DNA of 64,000 nucleotides from Candidatus Daviesbacteria bacterium (lineage in GTDB: Bacteria; Patescibacteriota; Microgenomatia; Daviesbacterales; UBA10151), in assembly GCA_028712705.1 (NCBI GenBank), contig JAQTPP010000002.1:43180-107179 (forward strand), read 5' to 3'. The position numbers were made by a program, and so were the translations under genes. Each line of letters starts with the position of its first letter. Position 1 is the first letter of the stretch. The notes under the pieces are model-generated. The model ran no database searches and had not been told where the DNA came from. It saw only the letters and a program-made list of their open reading frames with translations. Of this stretch, positions 46,191 through 62,866 are shown piece by piece.

Positions 46191-46784
46191 ATGTTAGAAA
46201 GTGAATTTGAAAGACTATGGAGATGGGCTCCGGTTCCCGATGAAGTTCGTAAAGAAAAAGGCGCTTGGAATTATGGGTCTCCTGGTAATAATTTTACTGG
46301 AACTGATAATGAGCGAGAATCCGAACTTTCGTTGTCTGATATTCGAAGATTAAATTCTAGGTTTACTGAAGGACCAACGAGAAGATTACGGCCGTATGTA
46401 ATAAAGGCAAACCCACTTTTTAAAGAGCAATCAGGCAAAGAGGAATCAGATGAAACACCCGGACAGTCTAAATACGTACTTAGAGAAGGAAGATGGGCAA
46501 TTACTGTAGCAGGAAGAATAGCTAGACGACCAGATAGTCATGATCATAATTGGGTGGTGAAGCATAAGGACGAAGGAACTCTACCAAGACCAGTAAAACT
46601 GATGCGATCTATGAAGAGAGATGGTTTTATGCCAGAAGATTGGCCAGTAGAAAATGTATCAAGAGATCCTTTAGAAGGTCCGTGGCAAGTAGGAGGAAAA
46701 ATTACTGTATTTAGTTCCCATGCTGAATGGGAGGATCTTGACGCTGGTTTCATTGCAAGATCCCACAAAACTCCAAAGACTTAA
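46191..46784 (+). CDS. Hypothetical protein
   Basis: 197-aa ORF with no recognisable motifs. Its 3' part is overlapped antisense by the recombinase ORF read-through. Confidence 0.35.
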   Translation: MLESEFERLWRWAPVPDEVRKEKGAWNYGSPGNNFTGTDNERESELSLSDIRRLNSRFTEGPTRRLRPYVIKANPLFKEQSGKEESDETPGQSKYVLREGRWAITVAGRIARRPDSHDHNWVVKHKDEGTLPRPVKLMRSMKRDGFMPEDWPVENVSRDPLEGPWQVGGKITVFSSHAEWEDLDAGFIARSHKTPKT

Positions 46785-48435
46785 TAAATCGATAGATTTT
46801 GCTTGGTTGAATTGATATAATTTTATAGTTTGCTGCCAAGTCTGACTTGGTTGGTATATTTGACGCGCCGCGTTCGTCTAGTGGCCTAGGACGTTGGGTT
46901 TTCATCCCAGAAATCACGGGTTCGACTCCCGTACGCGGTACCAAATCCCGAGTTAGCGGGGCGGCGCAGAGCGCCGCCCATGGGTTTAGAGCTCCACAGC
47001 AAACTATTTTGTCGGTGAGCTTGAGGTTCGAGCCGAAGATTTTTTGTGCAAGTACCTTTTTTGCTTCCATGTCTTCCCCCCTTGCGGTATTAGCTGCGTT
47101 AGCAGCTTCCACTATCCAGTTTTTGAAAGGTTCGAGCCAAACATTTTGCGTTTGTTGAAAGCGGAGGATTTGTTCTTCTAACGTCTTCTTTTTAGATAAC
47201 AGTTCAGCTTTTTTGTTAAGGTAAGAATCTCTCTCAATATCCTGGTCAAGGTATGAATCAAGAAGACGTTGAAGTTTATCATTTAAACTTCTAATCTCCG
47301 CTTGTTTCTCCTCAACAAACGCATGGCAGGATTGGGCTACATTTTTTTCTTCTACAGATAATCTATCCAGCATTTTATCTGCCCAATCCTGACGCAAAGA
47401 AACTGATGCAATATTATCTGAAAGCTGTCGATCAAGTTCCTCCTGCCTAATAAAAGGTTGATTACATTTAACAGTTTTGGACTTTTTCGTACATCTGTAA
47501 TACAAATAGGTGGCATGATGATTTGTTTCCTTATAAAATTTTTCCTTAAATTCAGCCGTAATCATCATGCCGCACTGCCCGCAGCGAAAAAGTCCCAGGT
47601 ATGGTTTTAAAACAAGAGGTTTTTTCCAAGACCTGCTTCGTTTCCTCCATACCTCTTGTACGCTATCCCACAGTTTCTTTGAAATGATCGGCGTATGTTT
47701 TCCTTCGTGGATCTCGCCCCAATATTTAAAATGGCCATAGTAGAAAGGGTTAGTTAAGATCTGTTTAGTTACTCTATCAGCTTTCCATTCCTGTCCTTTT
47801 CTGGTCACTATGCCATTTTTAGCCAAAAAGTCCCGGATATCCATTATCCGGTAGTTACCGGTAGCAAACAGTTCAAAAGCCTTTTTAACAATAGTAGCCC
47901 GCTTTTTATCCAAAACTATAGTTTTGATAAGGAGGTCGTTAAGGTAGCCAACAGGAGGGATACCAGGATATATACCATTTCTGACTTTTTGGCGTAAACC
48001 TCTTTTGGTGTTTTCTGAAAGCGAGTCCACGAAGTATTTGCTTTGCCCAAATGCGATGGTGAGCATAAATTTTCCCTGGGGTGTAGCATCAAACCAGAAT
48101 TGAGGAAACTTAAGATACTTAATTTTACCGGTATCAATAAGATAAATAATTTTGCCGCCATCCACACTATTTCTCGCAAGTCTGTCAGGATGCCAAGCTA
48201 AAATTCCATCTGCTTCCCCGGCTTCAATCCTTTCGATCATACTGTTAAAAATAGGCCTGCCAGGGATTTTAGCTGTCTGCTTTTCAACAAGCTCTTCTAA
48301 GATAATAATACCTTCACGCTTGGCATACTCCCTTAGCTCTGTAATTTGAGCAACAATTGATAAAGCCTGCTTATCTTCTACGTCTGTAGACTTGCGGGCA
48401 TATAAGAACATTTTATTCGTATTTGTAATACTCAT
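46750..48435 (-). CDS. Large serine recombinase (resolvase/invertase catalytic domain, recombinase domain, zinc ribbon, coiled coil)
   Basis: N-terminus 'LYARKSTDVEDKQALSIVAQ' with catalytic Ser, 'DRLARN', a Cys-rich zinc ribbon ('CGQCG...C..C') and a C-terminal coiled coil. The ORF's 3' end reads antisense through IR-L and tRNA-Glu, so the real C-terminus is uncertain. Confidence 0.8.
   Translation of the reverse strand: MSITNTNKMFLYARKSTDVEDKQALSIVAQITELREYAKREGIIILEELVEKQTAKIPGRPIFNSMIERIEAGEADGILAWHPDRLARNSVDGGKIIYLIDTGKIKYLKFPQFWFDATPQGKFMLTIAFGQSKYFVDSLSENTKRGLRQKVRNGIYPGIPPVGYLNDLLIKTIVLDKKRATIVKKAFELFATGNYRIMDIRDFLAKNGIVTRKGQEWKADRVTKQILTNPFYYGHFKYWGEIHEGKHTPIISKKLWDSVQEVWRKRSRSWKKPLVLKPYLGLFRCGQCGMMITAEFKEKFYKETNHHATYLYYRCTKKSKTVKCNQPFIRQEELDRQLSDNIASVSLRQDWADKMLDRLSVEEKNVAQSCHAFVEEKQAEIRSLNDKLQRLLDSYLDQDIERDSYLNKKAELLSKKKTLEEQILRFQQTQNVWLEPFKNWIVEAANAANTARGEDMEAKKVLAQKIFGSNLKLTDKIVCCGALNPWAALCAAPLTRDLVPRTGVEPVISGMKTQRPRPLDERGASNIPTKSDLAANYKIISIQPSKIYRFIKSLEFCGILQ
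46867..46943 (+). tRNA. tRNA-Glu (anticodon TTC), CCA encoded
   Basis: Acceptor GCCGCGT/ACGCGGT, anticodon loop TTTTCAT, T-loop TTCGACT. Its last 20 nt are repeated at 63223-63242. Confidence 0.8.
46939..47019. repeat. 81-bp perfect inverted repeat, left copy (partner 48840-48920)
   Basis: Exact reverse complement verified by hand. Overlaps the last 5 nt (TACCA) of tRNA-Glu. Contains the GC hairpin GGCGGCGC-AGA-GCGCCGCC. Confidence 0.85.
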
Positions 48436-48486
48436 AAAATAACCTTGAACCCTGTCGGGTATAAAAAGAATTTTTGCGATAAATTA

Positions 48487-48640
48487 TTGGCAGTTTGTTC
48501 CATATCTTTTGTGAAAGCGGATTGACTCCGCTTTCACTTAAATGGCCACCTTGGTGATCTCAACCGGTGAAGGTTGTCCAAGATGGCCATTAAAAAACTC
48601 CACCGAATGTTGAGATCGCAAACATATTACAAACTGCCAA
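48487..48640. promoter_or_regulatory. Complex palindromic site upstream of the recombinase gene (candidate recombination site / regulatory region)
   Basis: 12-bp IR TTGGCAGTTTGT/ACAAACTGCCAA. It encloses a 10-bp-stem hairpin (48511-48537) and a ~50-bp imperfect palindrome AATGGCCACCTTGG...CCAAGATGGCCATT centred on AACCGGT (48541-48591). Confidence 0.4.
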
Positions 48641-48839
48641 AAGAAAATACAATATAGCAAAAATTCAATTGCGCATTTAGGCAAAGTTTCCCCACCTTAA
48701 GTGGGGAATTATTGATTTATATTTATATAAAAATAAGCAAAGCTTTTCTTTTTGCTTTGCAAAAAATAAAAAATCGCAAGGGGAATTAAAATTTCAAAAA
48801 AAGGTACTGCAATTAAAAGAATCTTGGGCTTTCTGTTTC

Positions 48840-48920
48840 CTCACCGACAAAATAGTTTGCTGTGGAGCTCTAAACCCATGGGCGGCGCTCTGCGCCGCCC
48901 CGCTAACTCGGGATTTGGTA
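48840..48920. repeat. 81-bp perfect inverted repeat, right copy
   Basis: Reverse complement of 46939-47019. Abuts and overlaps by 3 nt the 184-bp IR copy A. Confidence 0.85.
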
Positions 48921-49101
48921 GCGATCTATGATATCGCTCGGACTTATTTTATCAGGAATTATTAATCGGCGCATCGTATCGTTACGCTTCGGCCGGCTAA
49001 TCGCCGGCCTTGCTAATCACCGACGTATCGGTTCGCTCCGCTCAGGCCGCCTTCGGCGGCCTTCGCTTACCCCGATTCAATCGGGGCTTAAAACTAATCT
49101 T
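48918..49101. repeat. 184-bp perfect inverted repeat, copy A (partner 62667-62850); GC-rich with at least 4 internal hairpins
   Basis: Exact reverse-complement match verified by hand. Internal hairpins include GGCCGGC-TAATC-GCCGGCC, GGCCGCC-TTC-GGCGGCC, CCCGA-TTCAA-TCGGG and GCGAT-CTATGAT-ATCGC. Confidence 0.85.
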
Positions 49102-49215
49102 ATCTTTGGAAATTTTCGCATTTTCTATCCTATCTTTCTGTCTGTTTTATTTTGAGTAGCTTTTGTCTAAAGAGCACTTTTGTTACTCAAACAAAATGTC
49201 TGTTATACTTTATTT

Positions 49216-49980
49216 ATGTCTCAAAATTTTTATGATAAGGTAGCTAAAAAATTTGGTGGTTATGGATATGGTAATGGAAGGAAACCTCAGTATAAAAGCG
49301 AATACCCAGCGGGCGATCCTGAAAGGATTTTTAAAGAAAAGCTATTGGAGTTAAGTTCAAAAGATAAAACGGCACTGGATAGTGGGTGCGCTGACGGCAA
49401 ATTTACTCTTTCTATTGCTCCCTATTTCAAAAAAGTGTACGGGATTGATATTTCAAAGGAAAATTTGAATGTTGCAAATAACCACAGAGCTGATGAGAGA
49501 AGTAAAAATGTTGAATATTCTTTTCAAAACGCAAAACATACCTCATTTGAGGATTCTTTTTTTGATATAGCATATTGCAGGAGAGGACCTACTTTTTACA
49601 AGGAGTATCACAGAATTCTTAAAACCGGTGGATATTATCTTGAAATTGGAATAGGAGAGATGGATACAATAGAGCTAAAAAAGATATTTGGCAGAGGGCA
49701 AGGGTATGGAGAATGGGATAAGTCAAAATTGGATGAAAACTTAAAAGAAATAAAGAATCTTGGTTTTAAGGTTATTTTTGCAGAGAATTTTTATCCCTTT
49801 GAATACTATCCTTCTTCCGCGGAGTTTGATTTATTTCTACATCAGGTACCAATTTTTGAAGATTATGATTCGGAAAAAGACGAGGTATCACTGCAAAAGT
49901 ATGTTAAGAAATTTTCAGCCGATAAAGGTATTATGCTTTCGCGTCACCGGTTGGTAATGGTTGTACAAAAAGTCAGTTAG
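49216..49980 (+). CDS. Class I SAM-dependent methyltransferase (Methyltransf_11/25-like)
   Basis: Motif I 'LDSGCADGKFT'. No DPPY/NPPF motif, so probably not a DNA N6/N4 methyltransferase. Start taken at the internal Met of the 49180 ORF. Confidence 0.65.
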   Translation: MSQNFYDKVAKKFGGYGYGNGRKPQYKSEYPAGDPERIFKEKLLELSSKDKTALDSGCADGKFTLSIAPYFKKVYGIDISKENLNVANNHRADERSKNVEYSFQNAKHTSFEDSFFDIAYCRRGPTFYKEYHRILKTGGYYLEIGIGEMDTIELKKIFGRGQGYGEWDKSKLDENLKEIKNLGFKVIFAENFYPFEYYPSSAEFDLFLHQVPIFEDYDSEKDEVSLQKYVKKFSADKGIMLSRHRLVMVVQKVS

Positions 49981-49994
49981 ACGATTTTCTCGTT

Positions 49995-50750
49995 TTATTT
50001 TTCGTAAATTCTGATTGCTTGCCGATATTTACAAAAGTCACAGTCGCTACCACTATTGGGTAGTTTTTCAGATTTTAAACATTCTATAGCATCGAAAATA
50101 GTTCCTTCAACCCAGCTATCGTCTCCTTCGTATGGAAGAATTTTAATATCAAATTCCAGTTTGGCATCAAAAGCTGCTTTGTCTGTATTGCCATTGCAGT
50201 AAACAAAGTATCCGGTATTTGAAACTTTGAAACAGTTTTTCCTAAAAAGCCACTGGTATATTTCCATCTGCCTTTTATAGCCAATTTGCCACTCGGCATT
50301 GAGGGTAACTTCTTCATCTTTGGCAGTAGCCTTGTAGTCAACTATGATTAGTTCTTTTTTGGGATTAACCCAAAGATCATCAATTCCCCCTGTTACCAAG
50401 ACATTACTGTGATCTATTTTTAAAGTTATTCCACCCCGTAGAGAATCTCTCCACTCATCCAACTTTTCGTGAGCCATAGGGACTGCATCAACTTTGTAAT
50501 GTTTCATCAAAGGATGGGGAGTACCATTTGCACGATGAATATCAAACTCTTTTTTTAACAATTTATCTACAGCAGAATTAAGGGAGAAGGGATACCCAGG
50601 CGGTTGAGCAACTCCTAATTTTCTATCAAGGTAAAAACATCTTGGGCAATTTAAATATAAATCAATTTTTGACCTGCTCAAACGAAATAATTCTTTAGAA
50701 TTCTTATCATATAAATTTCTTTTCCTACTTGGATTGTAATATTTAGACAT
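49995..50750 (-). CDS. Cas4-like/RecB-family PD-(D/E)xK nuclease with 4-Cys cluster
   Basis: N-terminal 'CPRC'; 'GGIDDLWV' (D), 'IIVDYKATAK' (D-x-K), 'QMEIYQ' (QxxxY); C-terminal 'C-x11-C-x2-C'. Start at the Met 4 nt after the upstream gene's stop. Confidence 0.65.
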   Translation of the reverse strand: MSKYYNPSRKRNLYDKNSKELFRLSRSKIDLYLNCPRCFYLDRKLGVAQPPGYPFSLNSAVDKLLKKEFDIHRANGTPHPLMKHYKVDAVPMAHEKLDEWRDSLRGGITLKIDHSNVLVTGGIDDLWVNPKKELIIVDYKATAKDEEVTLNAEWQIGYKRQMEIYQWLFRKNCFKVSNTGYFVYCNGNTDKAAFDAKLEFDIKILPYEGDDSWVEGTIFDAIECLKSEKLPNSGSDCDFCKYRQAIRIYEK

Positions 50751-53583
50751 CTTTGAAGTTGTACTTTTGCTCTCTTTTTTGGAAAGCCTCTCTCCCTCCC
50801 TCAAGAATTTCGCAAACGTGCTGGCGGACACCTTTTCTATAAAGTATAGATTTTTCTTTTGATTCCGATAGTTCAAAAGCATTTTCTAGTGATCCAGATA
50901 CATATTCAAATGTATATTTTCTATTATCTCTACCTTTTTCTTGACCTTCCTGGTTTGCTACTATTATTTCTTCGGCATCAGCTCCAACAACTAGATTAGG
51001 GTTATGTGTTACAAAAATAATCTGTCTTCGCTTTTTCTTTTTCTTGATAAAAGATACCAAATCATCGTATACGGATCGATTATCCAAGTCATCTTCAGGT
51101 TGGTCTAAAAGTATAGGCCATTCTTCATTGCTTAGGTCAATTAAAATTCTTAATAACACAAGACCTTTTTTACCAGGAGACATTTTATCCAATGAATCAT
51201 TTTTATATGAAATTTTGAAATCAAGGTAAAAATAGTCATCCAAAATTTTTGTTACTGCTTCTTTGGTAGATTTATTCTTAACAGTTTTTATTTTTCCATC
51301 TATTACGCTTGTGAAAATAGCAGTTATAAAATCTATATGTTCGTTCGGATTGTATTGATATTCATACTCATCTTTCCACTCAGTACCGTCTATCAATCTT
51401 TTAATATCTACTTTATTTATACAACCATTTATTACTTCATCATTAAATCTTTGCTCATTGAATCCTACTAAAACGTTTAAAGAGATTCCGTCAAATCTCT
51501 TTTCATACTTTTTAAATTCGTCCTTTATTGAATTATAACTACCGAATATTTTTTTATAAACATCAATTAAGAATTCTTTCTCATTTTTATGGCTATTTTT
51601 CTTTGATTCTAGATTCTTTTTTTCAATAGCTATCCTATCTAGTTTACCCTGCTCAATCTTAATTTCTTCATTTTTCTTTTTGAGTTCATCTTGGAGTTTA
51701 ACCTTTGCCATTAGAGGTGTTAGATCTTTTCGGATCTCTTCCAAAAGCTTTTGCTTTTCAGAAACTCTAGTATCTATTAATCTAATTATTTTACCTACAG
51801 ATAATAATAAATTATTACGTACAGTTTCTATCTGATGAAATTCTTTTGTAAATTCATTTTTAATCTCCTCATCTTCTAGATATACTAATTGTTCGTTCTT
51901 TAAATTCTCAAAACTTTTTAATTGTTGATAAATATTTTGACTAAATAAATTTATATGCTTTTTATCTTCCGATAAAAGTGTAACCTTTCTTGTTGCTTCT
52001 TGCTCTTTGTTTAATAATTGTTCGTAATCTTTAATTTGTACAGTAGTTAAGCCAGACTTGATCTTGATTTCGTTAGCTTCTTTCTGCAGTTGCTCTAGAT
52101 ATTTCCTAATACCACTCTCCTCTCCAAGTTGCTTTAAAGTTTGTTCAATTTCTAAAATATCATCCCTGAACTGATATAGATTGTTTATGCTAATAGGAAT
52201 ATTTTTTGAAAGGCTTTTAATTTGCATAAGATCACTTTCGTGTTTTTCTTTCACCTCTTTATCTTGAAGTAGTACATCCATTACGAATCTATTTAAAGTT
52301 TCTCTACTTTTTATATTCCTTTCAGAAAGTTTATTTAAATAATTTTGTGGAATATATAAAATCTTTCTTTCATTTTCTTTAACTTGTGCACCTGTATTTT
52401 TGAGAAAAGTACTTGCTCCATCTGTCCAAACGACTTCGAAATTAAAGTTTGGATTTTCGTCGAATGTATAAGGTAAAACTAATTGTCCATCTGTAAATCT
52501 ACCACCAGCTTCAAGTGGATCAATGGTTTTAGCAATATAATAAAGTAATAAAGATTTACCTGTAGATTTACCGCCAATGATAGCTGTTAAGTTATTGTTA
52601 ATTTCTATTGGGTCTGATTGAAAATTTTCATTTCCGGTACTATCAATAAATCGTATTTTATCTATGAGAAAATATGTTTTTTTTGATTCTGGGCGTTCGT
52701 AACCAAAAGCTACTCTATCCCAAGGCTCAAATAAAATTTGTTTTAATCCTTCAAAAGTTTTATCTGCTTTTATCCAAGTTATATCTTTTTCCGTATTGCC
52801 TTGAGTATTAGTGAACTGTTTCCCTAAAAAATTATCAAGATCGGAGAATGAATGACAGTCTGATGTAGTGACAACAGCTTTAGGCTTTGACTGTATACTT
52901 TTATTTTCATAGCGATCAGTTTGTAAGTAATAATCTTTATTGTTAGCATTTCCGAAGAAAAAATCACAAAAGCTGTCAAATGAGTCAGCTAACTCCTTTT
53001 TAACATTAGAGCTAGGAACAGCCCTTAAGCTCCCCATACCTGAAGCCACCCCTACAATGAGATAAGGACAGTCATTTCCAAAACTATCCTCTAAAGTTTT
53101 TTTTAAATCTTCAATCGAAATACTTACCCGATCATATCCGCCACACCCTGTAATATCTGCATCAACACAATAACATTTTGATTCATCAGGTTGTTTGTTT
53201 TGAAGGGGTAATCTAGAAAGAAAGCTTTTTATTCTTGCAATCTCGCATTGAGGATCAAAAATCAGATGGCATTGTAATTGTTCTGTAGCTTGATTAAGAC
53301 TAATATCTAGTCTCAATTCAATATTTGGAAAGAAAACTTTCCCCTCAAAATCTGAATTACCTTGTATCTTTGAGATAAGTTTTTCATACCCATCTATGGA
53401 AAAGTAATCAGTGATACCAAATACTTCTACATCAGAATTCTTAATTCTTTCCAGAAAAAGATTCCAAACGTCATCAATAATACCGCCTCTTATTTTATAT
53501 TGGTCTTCTCTTTTAGTCTCAGGAGTATGAATCTGTAAATCCCACTTCCTCCATACAGAACCCTTTGGGTATAAATTGTTCAT
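50743..53583 (-). CDS. PHP-domain-fused SMC/Rad50-like ABC ATPase (Ppl/TrlF-like architecture)
   Basis: N-terminus 'KWDLQIHTPETK' His-rich PHP-like. Walker A 'GGKSTGKS'. About 350 aa of coiled-coil-rich insert. C-terminal 'ILLDQPEDDLD' Walker B/D-loop and 'FVTHNPN' typical of OLD/SMC-like ABC ATPases. Confidence 0.7.
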   Translation of the reverse strand: MNNLYPKGSVWRKWDLQIHTPETKREDQYKIRGGIIDDVWNLFLERIKNSDVEVFGITDYFSIDGYEKLISKIQGNSDFEGKVFFPNIELRLDISLNQATEQLQCHLIFDPQCEIARIKSFLSRLPLQNKQPDESKCYCVDADITGCGGYDRVSISIEDLKKTLEDSFGNDCPYLIVGVASGMGSLRAVPSSNVKKELADSFDSFCDFFFGNANNKDYYLQTDRYENKSIQSKPKAVVTTSDCHSFSDLDNFLGKQFTNTQGNTEKDITWIKADKTFEGLKQILFEPWDRVAFGYERPESKKTYFLIDKIRFIDSTGNENFQSDPIEINNNLTAIIGGKSTGKSLLLYYIAKTIDPLEAGGRFTDGQLVLPYTFDENPNFNFEVVWTDGASTFLKNTGAQVKENERKILYIPQNYLNKLSERNIKSRETLNRFVMDVLLQDKEVKEKHESDLMQIKSLSKNIPISINNLYQFRDDILEIEQTLKQLGEESGIRKYLEQLQKEANEIKIKSGLTTVQIKDYEQLLNKEQEATRKVTLLSEDKKHINLFSQNIYQQLKSFENLKNEQLVYLEDEEIKNEFTKEFHQIETVRNNLLLSVGKIIRLIDTRVSEKQKLLEEIRKDLTPLMAKVKLQDELKKKNEEIKIEQGKLDRIAIEKKNLESKKNSHKNEKEFLIDVYKKIFGSYNSIKDEFKKYEKRFDGISLNVLVGFNEQRFNDEVINGCINKVDIKRLIDGTEWKDEYEYQYNPNEHIDFITAIFTSVIDGKIKTVKNKSTKEAVTKILDDYFYLDFKISYKNDSLDKMSPGKKGLVLLRILIDLSNEEWPILLDQPEDDLDNRSVYDDLVSFIKKKKKRRQIIFVTHNPNLVVGADAEEIIVANQEGQEKGRDNRKYTFEYVSGSLENAFELSESKEKSILYRKGVRQHVCEILEGGREAFQKREQKYNFKDV

Positions 53584-53584
53584 A

Positions 53585-53668
53585 TTATTCTTTATTATTT
53601 TCTACAATCGCAATTTCTTCCTGCGTTAGGCCGTAGAGTTTATAGACAAAATCGTTAAATTCAAACAT
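53585..53668 (-). pseudogene. 27-codon ORF (MFEFNDFVYKLYGLTQEEIAIVENNKE) resembling a DNA methyltransferase C-terminal tail; possible gene remnant or coupled micro-ORF
   Basis: 'LYGLTxEEI' is a recurring C-terminal tail of N6-adenine methyltransferases/type IIG enzymes (recollection). Its stop sits 1 nt before the ATPase start codon. Confidence 0.25.
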
Positions 53669-53831
53669 ATTAAATAATCACTTGCGCATAAATTTTTCTT
53701 CAAATATGTCATCAAAAACGGTTTCATTACTTTTACGGTAAATGGCATACCAATAATTTTTATCCATTTATCATGAGTTAGTAAGTTTCCGTATAATAGA
53801 CATTAAAATTTTGCTTATTAGTTTCCATATA

Positions 53832-56800
53832 TTATGAATGATACTGTCTCGTTCCTCTACAGTAAGGGAAACGGGAACAACCATAAAATCTACCATACCT
53901 TCCGGTTCTCAATATCATACCCGAACCGCATTTTGGACAATTTTTATCGTTAGAAATTAGAGCATCATTAACATCTTCGGCAGGCTTTTCAACTAATGTA
54001 TAACCCTTACAATGCATACAAAATCGTCCATATCCGGTTGTCAAATCAGGATCCCTAAAGTCTTTATATTCTCTAACTTCCTTACATTTTGGACACTCCT
54101 TCATTGAACCATTTTGTAAATTTTCTACCGTTTCGTGTATATGGCTTATGACATTATTTTTTCCCACCCCATTTTTAACTAAACTAATTATTCTTTCGTT
54201 AAGAGTTGCAATAGGATTGTTGCCAATGTTGAATTTATTAATTCTTAAAAATCTGTAACCGTAACTCTCTAATACTTTTTCTCTATAAATATCTGATTCG
54301 GAATAATAATCTTGGTAGTTGTATTCATTTATTTCATCGGTATCCTTAAAGTGCTCTTTAAAACCGTCATATTCCATGACGATTTTGTGTTCTTTATGTG
54401 TTTCGTCCTTATATACAAGTAAGAAATCAACCTTATATTTTGGATGATTGTAGGTTCTATCGAGTTGTTTCAAATACTTTCCAAGCTCAAACTGTGGAAT
54501 AAACTCAATGCTATCCTTGTGTTTTGTCCAAAACTCCGTTTGATAAAACCAATTCATGACTTCAGGCTCCATCTTAGACTTCTTATCAGCTTCGGTAACA
54601 CTGTGCTCCTTCTTAGATTCGTTAAGAACAAAATAATAGTGTCTTAAGGCTTCACCTATTGAACCGGTATAATTTTCAATAGGTTTACTTAACACAAAAT
54701 GCATACATTCTTTGGCACGGCTTAAACCAACGTTCAATCTTTGAGCTTTTATTCTTCCTTCTTCTTCAACATCAACATCATTTAAATCTTTAATAAACAC
54801 ACCCCAAAGATGATCATCTTCTTCCATCGCAACCATGGAATAAAATACGAGATCTCTTTCTTCGCCTTGGCAGGTGTCAAAAGTCATTATTTTTAATTTA
54901 AAGGTATCGTAAAAGTAATCTTTTTCCGGTAATTGACTAATTTTTTCAACGAGTAATTTCTGTTGATTGGTGTGGGGCGTTATAATACCAACGCTTTGAT
55001 TAGACCCAGACTCTTTGAGTTTTTTCAACTCCGAAATAATATATTTGACTTCCAATTCATTAGAATTTTGCAACAATTCCGTTTTCCCATCATGTTTGAT
55101 AAACGAAAATTTCAGTACTTCATCAATCGACTTCCCTCGAATTTTCATTACCTGTAGGCTGTCCTGATAAAAGTATTTATTTGAATAGGAAATAATCTCT
55201 TTGTAACCTCTAAAATATTTTAAAAGTTGTATATCGTAGTTACTAATAAAATCAAAAAACTCAAGAATTGAGGTTTTAATATTAAACTTTTTGAGTTTCT
55301 CTAATTTCACACCTTCATTTGAAATATTTTTAACAAAGCTGTCTTCAAGTTGACTTAAATATTTCCTATTTTCTTCTGTGCGAGCTTGCGCAGTCTTAAC
55401 GTTACTAAATTGTTTTCTATCTCCCAAAACTAACACCTTTTTAGCTCTCAGAAGTGCAGGAAAGGCCTGAGCTATGCTTACCTGTGAAGCCTCATCTATA
55501 ATTACTAAATCAAATATTTCAGGTTCAAGAGGAATATACTCAGCATAATCTCTAATTCCAGCCAAAATGCAGGGAAAAGCCTCTTTAAGCTTTAGAAATT
55601 CATTTTGTGGAAACTTCATTTTGCTTTGAATTATTTTTTTCAAAGCGGTTGCGGTAGCTTTGTAATTAGTCCAAAAATCAATCAGCCTATTGTCCATGAC
55701 ATGAGTCATTTGTACAGTAAGCAAGCTTTCAATGTCTTTCTTTTGACTATCGTAGTTGAGATCAGGAATGTCTTGAAAATCCTTTTCAATCTTTTGGTTC
55801 AAACTCAAATATCTGATTAATTTATCGAAATCCAAATCAGATATTTTTGTGAAACTATTATCAGTAAGAGTTTTAAATGACGAAAGATTAACTTTTAGTT
55901 TTTTAGCCGTAAGTGGATACTTATCTATATTTGAGCCAAGATATTTTATATCATCATTTAAAGCTATTAAGTCATTTAAAGATGATAGAGTGCTTTCATT
56001 TTTTATGGCTTGATGAAAAAAGTGTAAGTAGTCGAGTTTACTAATAAATTTGTCATCAAGCTTGCCAAATATTTCATCCGCATAATTATAGATGTTCGTT
56101 GCTTCGTCAAGTTTCTTTAGGTTTTGTTGTGGTTCGATTGAAGATGAATATTTAAAATTTTTTCTAAATTCAGTATTTAGCCGCCCTATCTGATCTTTTT
56201 TGAATAGATAGCCGAATAGCCAATTTTTCTCCTCTTTATATTTTTGTATGGACGAGTTTAGGATTTTTAACCTAGAAGAATCGAAGCTTTCGAACTCTAG
56301 AATTGAATTTACTTTATCTCCATATACTTCACGCAGTTTAGCGACAGATGAAGAAAGAGAGCTTAAAAACTGTAAATATTTTTGAAAATCAGATGTATCT
56401 TTGAAGTCATCAAGAGAAAAATCCAATAACTCAAATATTTTTAGTGCCTTTTCATTTTCATCAGTATTAATTACTAAATTAGCTTTAAGTGTTAAAAATA
56501 TCTTCCGGAATTCTTCAAGATCTATCGCAGACTCCTGCTGTTTAACCACTTCTTCTAAATCAATGGGGAAACCATTGTTTGTATGGTAGCTTTCAAGATC
56601 AAAGTATTCGTGAATCTCTTTTATATCGATATCCTTATAAGTCAATATTTCTGCTTCTATGTCCTCCTTTAATGACTTCTGAGATTTATCAATATTCTGT
56701 TCTAGATCCTTATAGTTTTTCTTTACTGCAAGAAAATTATTTGTAATAGCTTTAATTGATATTGGACTTAGTATCTTTGCATAAGCATTACCTATTTTCC

Positions 56801-58430
56801 CCAATCTTAAAACAGGATTTTGAAAATTATCGTCTGTCCTAACTTTGTTCATCGTTTCCGTTATCTTATCCTCTACAACATCAAGAGCCTCTTTCTTATC
56901 AGACAGAACTAAAACAGATTGGTTTTTAAGTATTGCGTTGAAAACAACTGCGGTTATTGTATGGCTTTTACCTGTTCCAGGAGGACCTTGCACAATAATA
57001 TATTTACAATCATCTTGCTTTATAGCTGATAGTATTTGTAGTTGTTCTTCGTTTAATGGAATCGGGCTTTGAAATACAAGTTTATCCTGTACTTCTTGAT
57101 CATTCCAATCTTCTTGAATTTCTATATTGAAACTTTTTGGGTCTTTCTGAATAAAGTCATCAATTAACTTGTTAAAAGCACCAGCTAAAATATTATCCTC
57201 GGAAGAAAGAAGCTTTAAAATTTCTTCGTAATCGTTTACCAACGCTTCATCAGATTTATCGAATAAGGTTATATAGCATGAATTAGACACCCTAACAAGA
57301 AAACTCTTCGCAACCTGCGGGTCCGTTTTATCTATATCAATATTGTTGTCTAATTCAAAAAAGTTAGTGATCTCATTCAGGATTTCGCTTGTTAATTCCC
57401 TGAAATCATCTTGATGTTGTGCTAGATAGATAATTCTTTCAGCAATGGTTTTTAGATTTCCCTTTTTATCTTTTTCTTGATTATATTGCTGTGAAATGTA
57501 TTCAAGTGCTTTCTTGTTTATGTAGACTTGAGAATCAAATTCTATATTCAATAGATCATTTTGTTTTTCTACAGTAAACGGAATATAGAAAATTGGATAC
57601 TTTGCCTTTTCAAAAGTGATATCGCAAAAATATAGATAAAATTCCTGTTTGTCTAAAATGGTACGGTTCCGCTCCATCTCATATACTTCTGCAAATAAAT
57701 CTCCGACACGGAAACTTTCAAAAAACGACAAAATATTAGTTTTGGCATTATCAATGTCAAAAACATCCTTTAATTGCTTAGGAATGTCTACCTTTTCCTT
57801 TGCCAACAGGAGCTTAATAACTTCTGAAATTTTATTTTCAAGCAAGGAGGTGAGAACAGAGGTAAGTTCCTCTTCCATTAAATAGATACTGTCCTCATCT
57901 CCTAAATTTAAGTTCTCGAGTGGTTTTTCTAAATAATTAATAAATGGTAGTACTAATTTTGATTGAATGACTTTTGAAGTTGCTTCGAGGGCTGTACTTA
58001 ACGCTTGGTCATATTCTTTTTTATACAGAGTAGACGATTTCTCAATCTCTCCACCAATTTGTTCAAGCATCTGAGAAATTTGCTTATTCGTTATTTTTGT
58101 AAGAGATAGCTCGATAAGATCAAGAAGATTTTGGGGTATATTTGTACGGTAGACACCTTTTTGGATCGCATTTAAAGCACTTTTGTCAAAAGAATGATTA
58201 ATTGCTTTCCAAACAAGATTAGAAAAAGCCGGATATTTATTAAGGTTTAAACCAATTAGTAGATTATTACCACTTCGTAATTGAACACTCCGTTTTGGGT
58301 TTCTTCTTTTATGGAAATCTGTTTCCAGAAAATCCATAAAGTATTTAGCAACTTCGCGAATAAAAGTAAGGCTCTTGGAGAGACTAAAAACTTTTTCGTC
58401 TTTATCAGTCTCATTATCAATTAATGCCAT
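53832..58430 (-). CDS. Giant SF1 (Upf1/DNA2-like) helicase fused to a DUF559/Vsr-like PD-(D/E)xK endonuclease and two topoisomerase-type zinc ribbons (Hhe-like architecture)
   Basis: Walker A 'GPPGTGKSHT'; motif II 'IIDEASQ'; 'VLVLGDRKQ'; C-terminal 'FLLVYKDETHKEHKIVMEYDG...REKVLESYGYRFLRI' REase-like; 'CPKCGSGMILRTGRYGRFYGCSRFPYCRGT' zf-C4_Topoisom. N-terminal ~470 aa are DUF4011-like. Confidence 0.8.
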   Translation of the reverse strand: MALIDNETDKDEKVFSLSKSLTFIREVAKYFMDFLETDFHKRRNPKRSVQLRSGNNLLIGLNLNKYPAFSNLVWKAINHSFDKSALNAIQKGVYRTNIPQNLLDLIELSLTKITNKQISQMLEQIGGEIEKSSTLYKKEYDQALSTALEATSKVIQSKLVLPFINYLEKPLENLNLGDEDSIYLMEEELTSVLTSLLENKISEVIKLLLAKEKVDIPKQLKDVFDIDNAKTNILSFFESFRVGDLFAEVYEMERNRTILDKQEFYLYFCDITFEKAKYPIFYIPFTVEKQNDLLNIEFDSQVYINKKALEYISQQYNQEKDKKGNLKTIAERIIYLAQHQDDFRELTSEILNEITNFFELDNNIDIDKTDPQVAKSFLVRVSNSCYITLFDKSDEALVNDYEEILKLLSSEDNILAGAFNKLIDDFIQKDPKSFNIEIQEDWNDQEVQDKLVFQSPIPLNEEQLQILSAIKQDDCKYIIVQGPPGTGKSHTITAVVFNAILKNQSVLVLSDKKEALDVVEDKITETMNKVRTDDNFQNPVLRLGKIGNAYAKILSPISIKAITNNFLAVKKNYKDLEQNIDKSQKSLKEDIEAEILTYKDIDIKEIHEYFDLESYHTNNGFPIDLEEVVKQQESAIDLEEFRKIFLTLKANLVINTDENEKALKIFELLDFSLDDFKDTSDFQKYLQFLSSLSSSVAKLREVYGDKVNSILEFESFDSSRLKILNSSIQKYKEEKNWLFGYLFKKDQIGRLNTEFRKNFKYSSSIEPQQNLKKLDEATNIYNYADEIFGKLDDKFISKLDYLHFFHQAIKNESTLSSLNDLIALNDDIKYLGSNIDKYPLTAKKLKVNLSSFKTLTDNSFTKISDLDFDKLIRYLSLNQKIEKDFQDIPDLNYDSQKKDIESLLTVQMTHVMDNRLIDFWTNYKATATALKKIIQSKMKFPQNEFLKLKEAFPCILAGIRDYAEYIPLEPEIFDLVIIDEASQVSIAQAFPALLRAKKVLVLGDRKQFSNVKTAQARTEENRKYLSQLEDSFVKNISNEGVKLEKLKKFNIKTSILEFFDFISNYDIQLLKYFRGYKEIISYSNKYFYQDSLQVMKIRGKSIDEVLKFSFIKHDGKTELLQNSNELEVKYIISELKKLKESGSNQSVGIITPHTNQQKLLVEKISQLPEKDYFYDTFKLKIMTFDTCQGEERDLVFYSMVAMEEDDHLWGVFIKDLNDVDVEEEGRIKAQRLNVGLSRAKECMHFVLSKPIENYTGSIGEALRHYYFVLNESKKEHSVTEADKKSKMEPEVMNWFYQTEFWTKHKDSIEFIPQFELGKYLKQLDRTYNHPKYKVDFLLVYKDETHKEHKIVMEYDGFKEHFKDTDEINEYNYQDYYSESDIYREKVLESYGYRFLRINKFNIGNNPIATLNERIISLVKNGVGKNNVISHIHETVENLQNGSMKECPKCKEVREYKDFRDPDLTTGYGRFCMHCKGYTLVEKPAEDVNDALISNDKNCPKCGSGMILRTGRYGRFYGCSRFPYCRGTRQYHS

Positions 58431-58491
58431 AGTTTAGATCAATTCTAGCAAAATTCTTTGATTTAAGATAGGAAGAAATTAAACTTGAGAT

Positions 58492-59004
58492 TTACAGACC
58501 CCAGATGCCTCTTTTATTTTTCTTGGCCTCATCTTGAGCTTTAAGTAATAACTCCCGGTAAATAAATGGTTTCTTTTTTTGGTAAACTACAACTTGTGCC
58601 ATGCCAAGTCTGGCAAGTTTCATAGAGACATTTTTGCCATCAACAATTACATAGGCAAGTATCCTGCCAAATTTGTCTCCTTTGTAATTGTCATATTCCA
58701 GTTTTATTTCTTTCCCTTCAACCAATTTTCTGTTTGCTTCAGTGGCCTCTTTTTCAAAAGGCTCATTAGTTTCAGGGGAAGTTATACCAACATACCTGAC
58801 AATTGCCCCGCTGTGCAAAACAATGGTATCTCCGTCAACAATCCGTTCAACTTTTGCTTCCTTTGGAAAATAACTGATATTCTGGGTCTGGTATTTACCT
58901 GTATTTTCAATTAGGTCTTTAATCTTTTTCTCATAAGGAGTATTTTTAAGATGAGGCAATATATCTTCCAGTAAATTTTCTGAAACGGTAATTAGTTTAG
59001 CCAT
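58492..59004 (-). CDS. Staphylococcal nuclease (SNase/thermonuclease)-like protein
   Basis: 'RIVDGDTIVL...VRYVGITSPE' and 'GKEIKLEYD...DKFGRILAYV' SNase OB-fold catalytic motifs. The ORF-track N-terminal extension overlapping the upstream gene was rejected. Confidence 0.65.
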   Translation of the reverse strand: MAKLITVSENLLEDILPHLKNTPYEKKIKDLIENTGKYQTQNISYFPKEAKVERIVDGDTIVLHSGAIVRYVGITSPETNEPFEKEATEANRKLVEGKEIKLEYDNYKGDKFGRILAYVIVDGKNVSMKLARLGMAQVVVYQKKKPFIYRELLLKAQDEAKKNKRGIWGL

Positions 59005-59044
59005 ATTTATGGATCCCGTATCAAGTACGGGATGACAAGGTAGA

Positions 59045-60265
59045 TTAGTTATGCTCAATAAAAGCTTTGTAGCCAACAAGCTTTTTGTTATCCCCTGAAC
59101 TGGAATAGATATTTTTAACTCCAAAGGTGAGATATAACTCATCTTTGGCATAAGTGATGGTAGTGCCATTGGGGTCTGATGAATTGAAGGTTTGCTTGAA
59201 ACCGGAATTTGTAAGCTCTCTGGTATAGTAATCAATAAAGTCTTGAGGAATAGTTTCCAGTTGTGATGATTCAAGGTAGACACCTTCCTGCTCAATTCTT
59301 CTTTTACCTGAAGTAAAAAGTAAGGTTTTGCTTTGGGTTAGTTCCCAAGTAAGGCCGGAGAATAAAGCAGGCAAGATAGAAGGATTAGAGGGGGTAGAAG
59401 GAGAAGAGGGATTAGGGGCAACAGGTAGCGTGGGAGTGGGGGTTGGTTTAGTTTCAAAAGAAACAACTTCGGAGACTTCTATTAAATTAGGGGTTGGGGT
59501 CATGTTGCCTTTAACTTCTACCTTCATGTTTTCAAAATTAGCTAAATTAACATTTTGTGATTTAGGTATTAGAGTCCACATGGTTTTATTTTTATCATTT
59601 GCCTGCAGGTAATATCCTTTGGTAGACTTTTGTATTGTCCCCTGGGCAGTAATTGACCGGTGCAGGATTGGAGAAAAATTGGGGAATAGTTTACCTACAG
59701 CATAGTTCAGGCCTGATTTAAATCCTACTCCAAAACCTCCAATTCCCACCATTATTACAATCAATGCCAGGACAGGAATGCGCAGAGTAATCATTTGTCT
59801 TTTGAGCAGTTTAGCTAAAAATTTCTTGAGATATGTTACAGGATTGGTCAGAAAGAAGCCAAAAAGAGGAGGGTCTTCTTTTTCAGAGGGTTTGGTATTT
59901 TGGTTAATTTCTATGATAGGAGGCAGAATTGAGGAAGGATTAGAGGGAACAGAAGGATTATCCGCCTTCGCCGAGGCTTCGGTGGACGAGGTAGGATGTT
60001 CAGATGTAATGAAGTGACCATGTTCGTCTCTTGGTTTGTTTTGGGCTGCTTCAGAATAATGTTCGTGTTTTAAAGCATCTGGTCCTTCGGCTTCACTCAG
60101 GATCTTCGAGGTATTCGGAGTGTTCAGGGGAGGAGTTTGTGGCGTAGGCGGGATAGGATTAGGTTGGGGTTGTGTCTGGTAAGGACTGTTTGGGTCTACA
60201 GGATTAGTATGGGGGTTAAAGTTAGAGCCAAAAGGTTGAGGCGGATCTTTGGGCAGATTATCCAT
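59045..60265 (-). CDS. Proline-rich membrane protein (low-complexity P/T/N-rich segments, one TM), unknown function
   Basis: Composition and one hydrophobic helix 'ITLRIPVLALIVIMVGIGGFGVGF'. Confidence 0.45.
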   Translation of the reverse strand: MDNLPKDPPQPFGSNFNPHTNPVDPNSPYQTQPQPNPIPPTPQTPPLNTPNTSKILSEAEGPDALKHEHYSEAAQNKPRDEHGHFITSEHPTSSTEASAKADNPSVPSNPSSILPPIIEINQNTKPSEKEDPPLFGFFLTNPVTYLKKFLAKLLKRQMITLRIPVLALIVIMVGIGGFGVGFKSGLNYAVGKLFPNFSPILHRSITAQGTIQKSTKGYYLQANDKNKTMWTLIPKSQNVNLANFENMKVEVKGNMTPTPNLIEVSEVVSFETKPTPTPTLPVAPNPSSPSTPSNPSILPALFSGLTWELTQSKTLLFTSGKRRIEQEGVYLESSQLETIPQDFIDYYTRELTNSGFKQTFNSSDPNGTTITYAKDELYLTFGVKNIYSSSGDNKKLVGYKAFIEHN

Positions 60266-60311
60266 ATCTTCAGTATACCCTCAAGATAATTTCAGGTGCA
60301 AGCTAAAGATT

Positions 60312-60884
60312 CTATTTAACTGCAATAGATATTAATTTTTCGTGATACTCCGGCTTTTTTGAAGAATCAACTCCATATAAAACTACTTCAATAATATCAA
60401 ATACCCAATTGACTTTTTTTAGCCTGGTACTTAATTCCAAGAGAGAGGCTTTAAATGCTTCTTGAGCTTTTGGATCTCCTACCCAAGCCACAGTAACATG
60501 AGGATGAAATGGTAAGTTATTATCAGCAGCGCAGTAAATAGATAGACTTTTTGAAATTAACTTATTAAATTCCTGTAATTGCGGCGGATATTGAACATCT
60601 GAAAATAGTATTCTTGGCTTATCTTCTCCAAAATACCCAAAACCGCTAACCTTTAATTTAGTTCCTTTCAGTATTTCTAAATACTTTTTGACATCTTCTG
60701 CTATTCTTGACAAAGCGGATTGAGATTGTTTATCTAAATAACAAACGGTGATATGAGGAGTTTTAGGGTGGGTTGTTTTAAATAAAGGACTGATTTGAGA
60801 AATATCGGTCTGTAAGTCTTCAAAATCTTGTTGATACTTCTGAGGCAGGGGGATTCCAATAAAATATGAACTATAATCTTTCAT
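60312..60884 (-). CDS. 2H phosphoesterase, LigT/ThpR-like (2'-5' RNA ligase family)
   Basis: Two HxT/S motifs: 'HITVCYL' and 'HPHVTVAW'. Confidence 0.75.
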   Translation of the reverse strand: MKDYSSYFIGIPLPQKYQQDFEDLQTDISQISPLFKTTHPKTPHITVCYLDKQSQSALSRIAEDVKKYLEILKGTKLKVSGFGYFGEDKPRILFSDVQYPPQLQEFNKLISKSLSIYCAADNNLPFHPHVTVAWVGDPKAQEAFKASLLELSTRLKKVNWVFDIIEVVLYGVDSSKKPEYHEKLISIAVK

Positions 60885-60941
60885 GAAAGCAGTATATCAA
60901 ATTTTGACTTTTTGAGCTTATAGGTTTACAATCCGATTGTT

Positions 60942-61886
60942 ATGTCAGCTGAAGCACCGAAAAATACTGGTATAACTGCTCCTAATACACAGCAAGAACC
61001 ACAAGGCTGTCTTCCCGGATTTCTAAGAAGATTATTTGCAACTCCACAAGAAGTACAACAAATACCAAAAATTATACAGCCACCATCAGGCTTAGAAGGC
61101 TTTGCTGATCAGCTACAGCAAGGAATAGATGGATATTTTGCATCAGTAAGGCAGCAAGATTTAGAGAGAAGAAATGCTGAAGCTGCAAGGATGGCAAATA
61201 AGGCATTAGAAAAGATAAAGACTGAACAACTACAAAGAGACCGGCTGGAGCAAGAACAATCAAGAATTAGGGCAGCAGTCACAGAGGCATCTAAGACCTT
61301 ACAGGATTTCCAGATAGCCGAAAGATTGAGATATATACAAGATAAAATATGGGGAGGAAAAGGGAATATAGCAGCTGCAGAACCTGCATTTAATATTGAT
61401 GGAAGGTATAACCGCCTAGGCGGACTTAGGTTAGAATATGAATGCCCATATTACTACAGAACGGTAACAGAAGAATGGTCAGATGCAAAAAATTATGCTT
61501 CCCGAAAATATGAACGAAGGTGGAAGTATGCTTCAGCTACATTTGGAACATGTCTGAGTGTAGATGTATTAGCCTGTCGACAGGACTCCCAAGTGGAGGC
61601 AAGAAAGCTCCTTGAAGTATCAGCAATATATGATTATACATTTAGAGTAGGTGTAGGTCGTTTCCCTTTTGGGGGTGACACATTCTTAGGGAAAGTTACT
61701 ATCCCGATAGACCAACCAGATAGCAAAACCCTTTTAGGCGGGGCTTTAACTCAAGAAACAGTTCATAGAGTTGCTATTGGATGGATACCGTCGAAACTAG
61801 ATGAACAAGCACTGGAAGAACGGTCACGTCTCCCTCATTGGGAAAAATGGATTTATGTACCCCCAGTGTATTCAGGTGGTGACTAA
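60942..61886 (+). CDS. Hypothetical protein (Gln/Glu-rich coiled-coil N-terminal half)
   Basis: 314-aa ORF with composition distinct from its neighbours; no motif recognised. Confidence 0.35.
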   Translation: MSAEAPKNTGITAPNTQQEPQGCLPGFLRRLFATPQEVQQIPKIIQPPSGLEGFADQLQQGIDGYFASVRQQDLERRNAEAARMANKALEKIKTEQLQRDRLEQEQSRIRAAVTEASKTLQDFQIAERLRYIQDKIWGGKGNIAAAEPAFNIDGRYNRLGGLRLEYECPYYYRTVTEEWSDAKNYASRKYERRWKYASATFGTCLSVDVLACRQDSQVEARKLLEVSAIYDYTFRVGVGRFPFGGDTFLGKVTIPIDQPDSKTLLGGALTQETVHRVAIGWIPSKLDEQALEERSRLPHWEKWIYVPPVYSGGD

Positions 61887-62666
61887 TATTTATTATTTTA
61901 ATTTGCGGCTTCCGCCGCCCCCGCAAAGTTAAGGTATAAAGACCCAAAAAGAGGGCAGCACCATTAGAAGGAATGTTAGGAATGTAGATAAAAATATAAT
62001 TGGGTGCTGCCCGATATACGCGAACCCGCCAAATTTTACTTCGGGATTTTAAAAGGGCGGGTGAGCCATCGGAATCAGTTGTGAGTGTCCCGTCTCGAGA
62101 CGGGACCGAACGGCATGGAAACAGAACAGGGTAAAAATTGCGGCGGGGGCGAAAGCGGAATACCCCCGCAACGGCAGGCGGTACTTCATAACCAATTTAA
62201 GGTAGTCAAGGAGCAGACCCTAAAGGGTCTCCGATCTATAACAGAATAAATAAAGGAATCAATATAAAATAAAATTTCGCGGCTCCGCAGACGGGTTAGA
62301 TACTGTATGAGCAAAATTGAAACGTACCATATAGGCGAGTCGCCCCCTAGGGCGACCTCTCGCCCAAAAGCGGGGGTGCCGCCACAACTATTTGGGTGGG
62401 TGGGTTGCTAGGAGTATGTACCAGCTCCACAACTTACCACAACACCACAATTTGTGGGCTGCTGAAGCAGGTAACCACAATTGTGGTCCACAATAAATTA
62501 TTGTGGTGATTAGATTGTTACAACAGGCTAATTGTGGTACTTATAAAAATAATGCAACTTTGTAAATGGTTGTGGGAGTGGGACTAGTTGCCCGCGGATG
62601 GGTGGGGTGGGCAAGGGCAACATTTTCTGTTTCCCCCTTTCCCCTCCTGCGAAAATTTCCAAAAAA
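61887..62666. other. GC-rich ORF-free structured region: stacked hairpins, CCACAA/TTGTGG palindromic iterons, G-tract (G4-like) motifs; candidate ncRNA and/or origin/partition/operator array
   Basis: No ORF of 60 aa or longer in any frame across ~640 bp. Perfect 20-bp palindrome GTCCCGTCTCGAGACGGGAC (62088-62107). GCGGGGG-[GC-GAAA-GC...]-CCCCCGC. Three CCACAA-N(0-5)-TTGTGG palindromes at 62475-62510 plus half-sites. GGGTGGGTGGG (62396-62406) and GGGTGGGGTGGGCAAGGGCAA (62600-62620). Confidence 0.5.
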
Positions 62667-62850
62667 AAGATTAGTTTTAAGCCCCGATTGAATCGGGGTA
62701 AGCGAAGGCCGCCGAAGGCGGCCTGAGCGGAGCGAACCGATACGTCGGTGATTAGCAAGGCCGGCGATTAGCCGGCCGAAGCGTAACGATACGATGCGCC
62801 GATTAATAATTCCTGATAAAATAAGTCCGAGCGATATCATAGATCGCTAC
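62667..62850. repeat. 184-bp perfect inverted repeat, copy B
   Basis: Exact reverse complement of 48918-49101. Confidence 0.85.
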
Positions 62851-62866
62851 ACTTCGGCTACGCTCA

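Follow-up and report, generated by a model that had tools for sequence, protein, structure and literature searches.

Leaders that pair with the initiation region of a gene whose product is kept scarce and thereby sequester its ribosome-binding site are known from the fold-back inhibition of the IS10 transposase and from the kinetic trap in the leader of the MS2 maturation gene, and in both cases ribosome access can depend on which structure folds first as the RNA is transcribed. Riboswitch platforms and RNA thermometers are likewise bistable 5′ untranslated regions, which combine covariation, a Shine-Dalgarno-like stretch held in a helix and alternative folds of near-equal energy. The motif analyzed in this study, which lies upstream of a large serine recombinase (LSR) gene of a Candidatus Daviesbacteria bacterium, resembles both groups. 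Its palindromes are probably the helices of a structured RNA at the 5′ end of the LSR mRNA, and this RNA would act as a bistable cis-regulatory leader that gates translation of the recombinase.

Different from the IS10 and MS2 leaders, the two covarying helix sets of the motif would exclude each other by topology (loop and tail) and not through a shared strand, the host gene is an LSR of candidate-phyla bacteria, and there is no sequence or Rfam relationship. Different from riboswitches, no aptamer-like conserved pocket or ligand was identified and no Rfam family matched, and the gene concerned is a mobile-element recombinase and not a gene of metabolism. The strand order is that of an H-type pseudoknot (S1a-S2a-S1b-S2b), in which the loop of a hairpin is paired to a stretch downstream of it. 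In the motif, however, S1 is ~20 bp, S2 is 14–19 bp and the linker is only 0–1 nt where a groove-spanning loop would be needed; with such loop lengths a complete knot is sterically implausible, and a classical H-type pseudoknot was rejected.

The recombinase gene and the palindromic block upstream of it

The window, as we term the whole 64-kb stretch of DNA that was analyzed, encodes at positions 46750–48435 of the minus strand an LSR of 561 aa, in which Resolvase, Recombinase and Zn_ribbon_recom domains were identified by domain search. The last ~89 codons of this ORF run through the left arm of an inverted repeat and then antisense through a tRNA-Glu gene. Most homologues are shorter (505–520 aa), and their C-termini likewise spell antisense tRNA (GIEP, GFEP or GVEP). 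The LSR family comprises more than 7800 proteins, many of which are 60–82% identical, and the matches with a named source come mostly from Curtiss-, Davies- and Gottesmanbacteria and other Patescibacteria. An exact look-up of the window LSR in an assembly index found it not on record, and a search of solved structures returned remote matches only (E ~ 1e-6). Eighty related loci were taken from species-representative genomes; in the closest of them the upstream region aligns with that of the window, and the palindromes recur with changed sequence and retained complementarity.

The palindromic block at 48487–48640 precedes the ATG (48435) of the minus-strand 561-aa ORF by 52 nt, which confirms the adjacency to the recombinase gene pointed out in an initial annotation of this DNA, and all the repeats described there are borne out. 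The 12-bp inverted repeat is present and perfect (48487–48498 / 48629–48640), and its 12-mer occurs with 0 mismatches at just these two places in the 64-kb window. The imperfect palindrome has 17-nt arms (48538–48554 / 48578–48594) that carry AATGGCCAYCTTGG and are 88% complementary, and the inverted repeat that brackets the region, given as 81 bp, measures 84 nt at 99% identity (46936–47019 / 48840–48923). The hairpin exists at 48511–48521 / 48527–48537, with a stem of 11 bp and a loop of 5 nt in place of the 10 bp and 7 nt first reported. A fourth repeat (48551–48564 / 48609–48622) had been overlooked; because it interleaves with the AATGGCCA palindrome, the arrangement is knotted and not merely layered. 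Folding of a 171-nt stretch against dinucleotide shuffles gave z = -8.4 for the plus strand and z = -8.1 for the minus strand, and this folding strength is no chance effect.

The core motif, consisting of helices Pa, Pb and Pc in the predicted 5′ leader of the LSR mRNA, occupies 48534–48621 on the minus strand, where the covariance model R1 described below scores 52.5 bits (E = 8e-10) and finds its single copy in the window. Read in the LSR sense, it begins with the Pa 5′ strand (48609–48619; RNA GCGAUCUCAAC), which was located by a repeat finder and by constrained folding and is partnered by the Pa 3′ strand (48554–48564; RNA GUUGAGAUCAC). Nested in Pa past a 3-nt bulge is Pb, the 5′ strand of which (48598–48605; RNA CGGUGGAG) pairs with 48565–48572 (RNA CUUCACCG); what had been described as an AACCGGT centre of the palindrome falls within this Pb 3′ strand. 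A conserved U6 run (48592–48597), four columns of which are invariant in alignments A2 (T35–T38) and A3 (T28–T31), stands between the Pb 5′ strand and the Pc 5′ strand (48578–48591; RNA AAUGGCCAUCUUGG; repeat finder), and the latter is placed in the Pa/Pb hairpin loop. The purine-rich, Shine-Dalgarno-like Pc 3′ strand (48541–48554; RNA CCAAGGUGGCCAUU) follows the Pa 3′ strand without a linker.

In the window, two accessory minus-strand helices would wrap this core. Pd (48511–48537; GUGAAAGCGGA / UCCGCUUUCAC), which is the hairpin mentioned above, is confined to the closest subgroup, where the equivalents in L001, L002, L004 and L201 differ in sequence from member to member, and most relatives are without it. 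P0, the 12-bp repeat, consists of a 5′ arm at 48629–48640 (RNA UUGGCAGUUUGU), overlapping a conserved GGCAGTTTGTAATAT box that is kept in L001, L002, L004 and L201, and of a 3′ arm at 48487–48498 (RNA ACAAACUGCCAA). In L201, whose LSR is 81% identical, P0 has a counterpart of 8–9 bp, the 3′ arm of which (AAACUGCC) abuts the ATG. In the window, the P0 3′ arm is followed by AAT AAT TTA and then, at 48459–48479 of the minus strand, by TCG CAA AAA TTC TTT TTA TAC, a dead copy of LSR N-terminal codons (SQKFFLY) recognized by comparison with P0002 / L201 and with alignment A1, and the live ATG comes 52 nt further on. The P0 3′ arm once adjoined the start codon, and a rearrangement of ~60 nt has shifted the ATG 52 nt downstream. 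With its leader rearranged, the window copy may be regulated in an altered manner.

Conservation, covariation and strand asymmetry of the motif

Of 81 sequences searched, 39 carry the interleaved set of Pa, Pb and Pc directly 5′ of a homologous LSR gene; without exception the set reads in the LSR sense and has a TGnTATAAT-like box upstream. The order in the LSR sense is TGnTATAAT-like box, Pa 5′, a bulge of 3–5 nt, Pb 5′, U-run, Pc 5′ (AAUGGCCGUCUCGG), an A-rich stretch, Pb 3′, Pa 3′ and Pc 3′ (CCGGGGCGGCCAUU). The A-rich stretch is ~5–9 nt in typical members and longer where Pb has insertions, and the linker from Pa 3′ to Pc 3′ is 0–1 nt. Of 18 sequences subjected to constrained folding, 17 formed both Pa + Pb and Pc. 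Another class of sequences, made up of L035, L039, L043, L049, L050, L051, L055 and L060, keeps the same order (Pa5′-Pb5′-Pc5′-Pb3′-Pa3′-Pc3′), with a Pc of 19–20 bp (GCAGAAATGG...CCATTTCTGC) and without the U-run.

Because MAFFT misaligned Pb and shifted the Pa of the window by 2 columns, covariance model R1 was built from seven cleanly aligned seeds, and its structure comprises Pa + Pb only, with Pc left out. The search with R1 yielded 40 places at E < 5e-4, all of which have the orientation of the LSR and directly precede its start. Across alignment A6 (40 sequences), 96.6% of cells pair, compared with 32–47% when the 3′ partners are slid by 1–3 columns, and compensatory changes were found in 30 of 34 pairs (Pa, 12/12; Pb, 8/8; Pc, 10/13), the Pc pairs covarying even though Pc is absent from the structure of the model. 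The structure-blind, MAFFT-only alignment A2 gave 95.4% paired cells versus 33–47% when slid, and RNAalifold predicted Pa + Pb with 19 of 19 pairs compensated. Canonical pairs account for 96.6% on the sense strand versus 87.8% on the antisense strand, and G·U cells outnumber A·C cells by 122 to 8, which indicates that only the LSR-sense strand folds and points to an RNA and not to a duplex protein-binding site.

Imperfect palindromes are typical of serine-recombinase DNA sites, and a duplex att/res/hix-like site that the serine recombinase binds for recombination or as an operator would be in keeping with a block that adjoins the recombinase gene within an inverted-repeat bracket. This was the reading of the initial annotation, which proposed an att, res or inversion site with a central crossover dinucleotide. 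We consider such a site very improbable. The arms covary by compensatory changes and their sequence is not kept; the distance between the AATGGCCA (Pc) arms varies among relatives, in place of the fixed spacing of half-sites; the strand asymmetry (G·T to A·C, 122:8) is strong, one strand only being folded, where recognition of a duplex would favor neither strand; and three interleaved repeats are ill-suited to a dimer site. The block is also without a partner, as AATGGCCAYCTTGG searched with ≤2 mismatches matched just its own two arms and the 12-mer found no partner across the 64-kb window. In a sister LSR subfamily the motif falls outside the inverted-repeat bracket, and better crossover candidates are located at the arm ends. 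From the earlier proposal of a candidate recombination or autoregulatory site, the functional tie to the recombinase gene is therefore retained, with a regulatory role as the best reading, and the DNA att/res/inversion site is not.

The strong hairpins fold on both strands, as would those of an intrinsic or bidirectional terminator or of a folded single-stranded DNA site similar to the integron attC, and folded-DNA sites such as attC also show structure conservation with strand bias. Both possibilities seem hardly credible here, since a terminator scan called nothing within 48487–48640, the Pc loop is 25–45 nt, where an intrinsic terminator would have a GC-rich stem with 3–8 nt in the loop and a U-tract, and no U-tract comes directly after it, no convergent gene end is present at the block, and the element is preceded by a promoter-like box and followed by an ATG. 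To our knowledge, moreover, folded-DNA substrates are those of tyrosine and HUH enzymes and not of serine recombinases.

A scan of metagenome contigs with the Pc 5′ core revealed at least 120 loci, and viral contigs scanned with the Pc core gave 0 matches. Among 116 usable metagenome copies, 83 are followed on their own strand by an LSR ORF, 18 have downstream sequence too short (≤700 nt) for the presence of an LSR to be judged, and 15 have ample downstream sequence and no LSR ORF, about 9–10 of these being structurally intact and the remainder decayed. The motif is spread over Microgenomates, Parcubacteria and Saccharibacteria, where it accompanies LSR genes at hundreds of loci. When compared with Rfam 15 (4227 families), the whole window matched only tRNAs at gathering score and the region 48300–49300 matched nothing meaningful at E ≤ 10. 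No family matched in the Rfam scan of relatives, and literature searches returned no description of the motif or of its element.

Inverted repeats, tRNA ends and candidate recombination sites

The left arm of the 84-nt inverted repeat begins inside the 3′ end of tRNA-Glu(UUC) (46867–46943). An inverted repeat around the LSR is a feature of the family, identified in about 63 of 80 loci with a length of 50–219 bp (mostly 80–220), and about 37 of 65 such repeats are 100% identical. The contigs of many relatives stop precisely at an arm, which is what a break of assemblies at such repeats would produce. In 38 of 45 loci the boundary of the downstream arm falls 4–6 nt within the NCCA terminus of a convergent tRNA, which can be of any identity. 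The flank outside the upstream arm is conserved as TGATAAAATRAGTTCGAGC-N6-GTAAA-N4 followed by NNCCA (window 48924–48955, minus strand; L001–L080) and includes a T-loop-like TTCGA box, which stands 26 nt from the CCA as compared with 22 nt for the T-loop of a tRNA (10 of 19 loci). A promoter-like CTGATA-16-TATCAT that points into the arm was called in the same flank (48924–48955). Each arm contains a GC hairpin (GGGCGGCGC-AGA-GCGCCGCCC; 46958–46980 and 48879–48901) that encodes a conserved WAALRAAP; in homologues with WSALRADP the Ser and Asp codons change together and the hairpin is kept, which indicates that the nucleic-acid structure is under selection within the coding sequence.

A second inverted repeat (203 nt, 99%; 48918–49120 / 62648–62850) brackets 13.5 kb and copies the flank. 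It recurs in 12 relatives at 0.9–3.2 kb upstream of the LSR, is mostly 100% identical and encloses diverse unrelated genes, which include ORFs with GMP synthase- and alanine racemase-like N-termini (by eye). Three junctions have only a TAC core in common, namely tRNA·x (...GCGG-TAC-CAAATCC; 46941–46943), flank·x (...TCGC-TAC-CAAATCC; 48916–48923, minus strand) and flank·y (...TCGC-TAC-ACTTCGG; 62845, within 62843–62850). The 3′ end of tRNA-Glu is repeated directly over 20 nt (GACTCCCGTACGCGGTACCA; 46924–46943 / 63223–63242).

This 20-nt direct repeat marks an island of ~16.3 kb, with a GIY-YIG gene (62867–63190) between the right flank copy and the repeat. The island cargo (49180–62600) has a defence-like look, comprising a methyltransferase, a PD-(D/E)XK nuclease, an SNase-domain protein, a 2′-5′ RNA ligase-like protein, a 946-aa ORF that matches SMC_N weakly and below threshold, and an AAA_11/AAA_12 helicase of 1532 aa that bears a topoisomerase-type zinc ribbon. 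The GC content drops to 27–33% over 51–58 kb.

We hypothesize that the three junctions correspond to the attL and attR of the ~16-kb island and to an internal, inverted attP-like site, a reading of the arm ends that stays hypothetical because neither an empty site (tRNA-Glu...GGTA·CACTTCGG) nor an excised site was found. The likeness to attP/attB of large serine integrases (Bxb1, phiC31 and A118 type) concerns the arm ends and not the palindrome. The core is a common TAC, and in the outer half-sites the TTCGA-like box is 4 nt further from the core in the element flank than in the tRNA, which recalls the difference between attP- and attB-type half-sites. Different from those sites, the element keeps an extra inverted attP-like copy when integrated, and its repeats are 84–203 bp and near-perfect. 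Recombinase genes are likewise bracketed by inverted repeats in invertible segments such as Salmonella hin and yeast 2-micron FLP, whereas here a single orientation, with the LSR 3′ end facing the tRNA, was observed in all 38 readable relatives, with no evidence of flipping. Because the orientation is uniform in relatives, a free inversion switch of the 84-bp inverted repeat was not supported.

In the sister LSR subfamily (~45% identity), ~250 nt separate the motif from the ATG, and this spacer includes the upstream inverted-repeat arm with an attP-like site. Its members (L081, L091, L133, L146, L149, L153, L175, L177, L178 and L200) have a conserved non-coding leader of ~450 nt, in which the motif is succeeded by AAAGTTCTTTAAAATTTTTGCG, GC-rich helices and the upstream arm, and which terminates, immediately ahead of the ATG, in the reverse complement CGCAAAAATT...TTAAAGAACTTT. 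This ~450-nt leader may be a large structured RNA.

Promoter, start codon and a two-state model of the leader

Upstream of the motif, an extended -10-like box (TGCTATATT; 48651–48659, minus strand) was read by eye within GAATTTTTGCTATATTG, which by the same inspection is conserved family-wide at this position, and a second -10-like hexamer, TAATAT (48624–48629, minus strand; by eye), stands 3–6 nt before Pa. Among relatives, the TGnTATAAT-like box ends 3–8 nt before Pa (by eye). A -35/-10 consensus scan, which requires a -35 hexamer, did not call this box, and its conservation points to a putative promoter. Between the arm and this promoter, the region 48667–48839 carries family-wide conserved blocks, namely CTTGCGATTTT, a GC hairpin (48688–48708) whose sequence changes from relative to relative, and ACTTTGCCYAAA; where the upstream region of a relative is short, nothing but these blocks lies between the arm and the ATG. 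The family thus has, between a promoter-like box and the ATG, a covarying structure on the sense strand, which is the arrangement of a structured cis-regulatory leader.

The Pc 5′ strand sits in a ~30-nt loop closed by ~20 bp of Pa + Pb. Given this position, the 0–1 nt linker and the lack of any loop able to span either helix, a Pc of 14–19 bp should exclude Pa + Pb, the mutual exclusivity being steric and deduced from geometry. Constrained folds with either half blocked had medians of -30.6 and -30.8 kcal/mol, with a median |ddG| of 2.2. The motif therefore offers two covarying structures of similar stability that, as judged from this geometry, would be exclusive, as in a bistable switch. The analysis thus shows a conserved structure, together with its strand, position and energetics. 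The distance from the Pc 3′ end to the ATG has a median of 17 nt and is ≤30 nt in 62 of 85 copies. No Shine-Dalgarno-like 4-mer is present in 51 of these 62 short linkers, which makes the purine run in Pc 3′ (AGGG, GGGG or AAGG) a candidate ribosome-binding signal.

From these sequence features we predict that the motif is transcribed, that it switches between two states and that its state affects translation. Fold A would be a long bulged hairpin of Pa + Pb, with the Pc 5′ strand carried in its loop, and fold B would be the Pc helix, formed between the loop sequence and the stretch immediately 3′ of Pa. In most members Pc 3′ would serve as the ribosome-binding region, which fold B would hide, turning the recombinase OFF, and which fold A would leave free, turning it ON. 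Fold A would be completed first during transcription, and translation may be confined to nascent transcripts. Alternatively, the state may be set by some trigger, e.g., temperature, a ligand or the recombinase itself.

The distance to the start codon is not uniformly short. In the window, 105 nt lie between the end of Pc 3′ and the present ATG, so that Pc cannot directly block the ribosome-binding site of this copy, and the ATG is >150 nt away in 12 of 85 copies. A 5′-terminal element that stabilizes the transcript or renders RNA polymerase resistant to termination, like HK022 put, would act independently of this distance. Such an element would be compatible with a motif that begins at the predicted transcription start site, with the tolerated range of motif-to-ATG distances (from 5 to >450 nt) and with the GC-rich hairpins downstream in the long-leader subfamily. 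We nevertheless consider it unlikely, because it accounts neither for two incompatible covarying helix sets and their balanced energies nor for the fact that Pc 3′ often holds the only Shine-Dalgarno-like purines, and because the motif bears no likeness to put or other antitermination RNAs of Rfam.

Intact motif copies without a downstream recombinase ORF were observed in L103, L135, L143, L150, L158, L182, L189 and L193, and visibly decaying ones in L086, L100, L112, L115, L179 and L196. The L143 motif precedes a P-box and a flank that adjoins tRNA-Gln, and the L150 motif is co-oriented with a tRNA-Glu located ~55 nt downstream. An origin of the LSR-less copies as internal deletion derivatives was considered and dropped, the motif, P-box and tRNA-proximal flank of L143 making up an S3-type site (S3, 62800–62880 in the window). 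The intact copies (about 9–10) are unexpected for a purely cis-acting translational operator. Together with the long-leader subfamily, the LSR-less copies leave room for a role at the transcript level, for antitermination or stabilization, or for a function of the RNA itself.

An RNA with its own role in the life cycle of the element, acting as a small RNA or a cofactor or by sensing the recombination state, would go beyond a translational operator and be in keeping with the persistence of intact copies without an LSR ORF and with a motif that is always at the predicted transcript 5′ end, whatever follows. It would also fit L143, the sole LSR-less locus examined, whose copy stands at a second attP-arm-like site beside a tRNA 3′ end, and the sister subfamily, in which the transcript would cross an attP-like P·x junction before reaching the LSR. 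Weighing against such a role, complementarity of the motif to the inverted-repeat arms and flanks is no better than chance, most copies are within 30 nt of an ATG and some LSR-less copies are visibly decaying; in addition, large serine recombinases recognize DNA through protein domains. On balance an own role appears quite unlikely. A guide or bridge RNA, the loops of which would match target and donor DNA, was rejected, since in 36 copies of the motif the longest words shared with the arms or flanks are just as long as expected from shuffles.

The bistable leader that gates LSR translation remains the reading we favor, and it gives a concrete and testable two-state model. LSRs are major genome-engineering tools, and little is known about the control of their natural expression. 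The motif is a widespread, covariation-supported RNA that is absent from Rfam 15 and tied to one very abundant recombinase family of the candidate phyla radiation, in which regulation has almost never been studied by experiment. The element itself, which targets tRNA 3′ ends with nested, near-perfect inverted repeats, is unusual. The locus also provides a correction, in that palindromes beside a recombinase gene were naturally, but wrongly, taken as its DNA sites. There is a small chance that the RNA is a functional partner or state-sensor of the LSR, coupling for example its synthesis or reaction to integration at tRNA 3′ ends, or a ligand-sensing riboswitch that makes mobility conditional; if either were true, it would be the first case of a structured RNA dedicated to a large serine recombinase.
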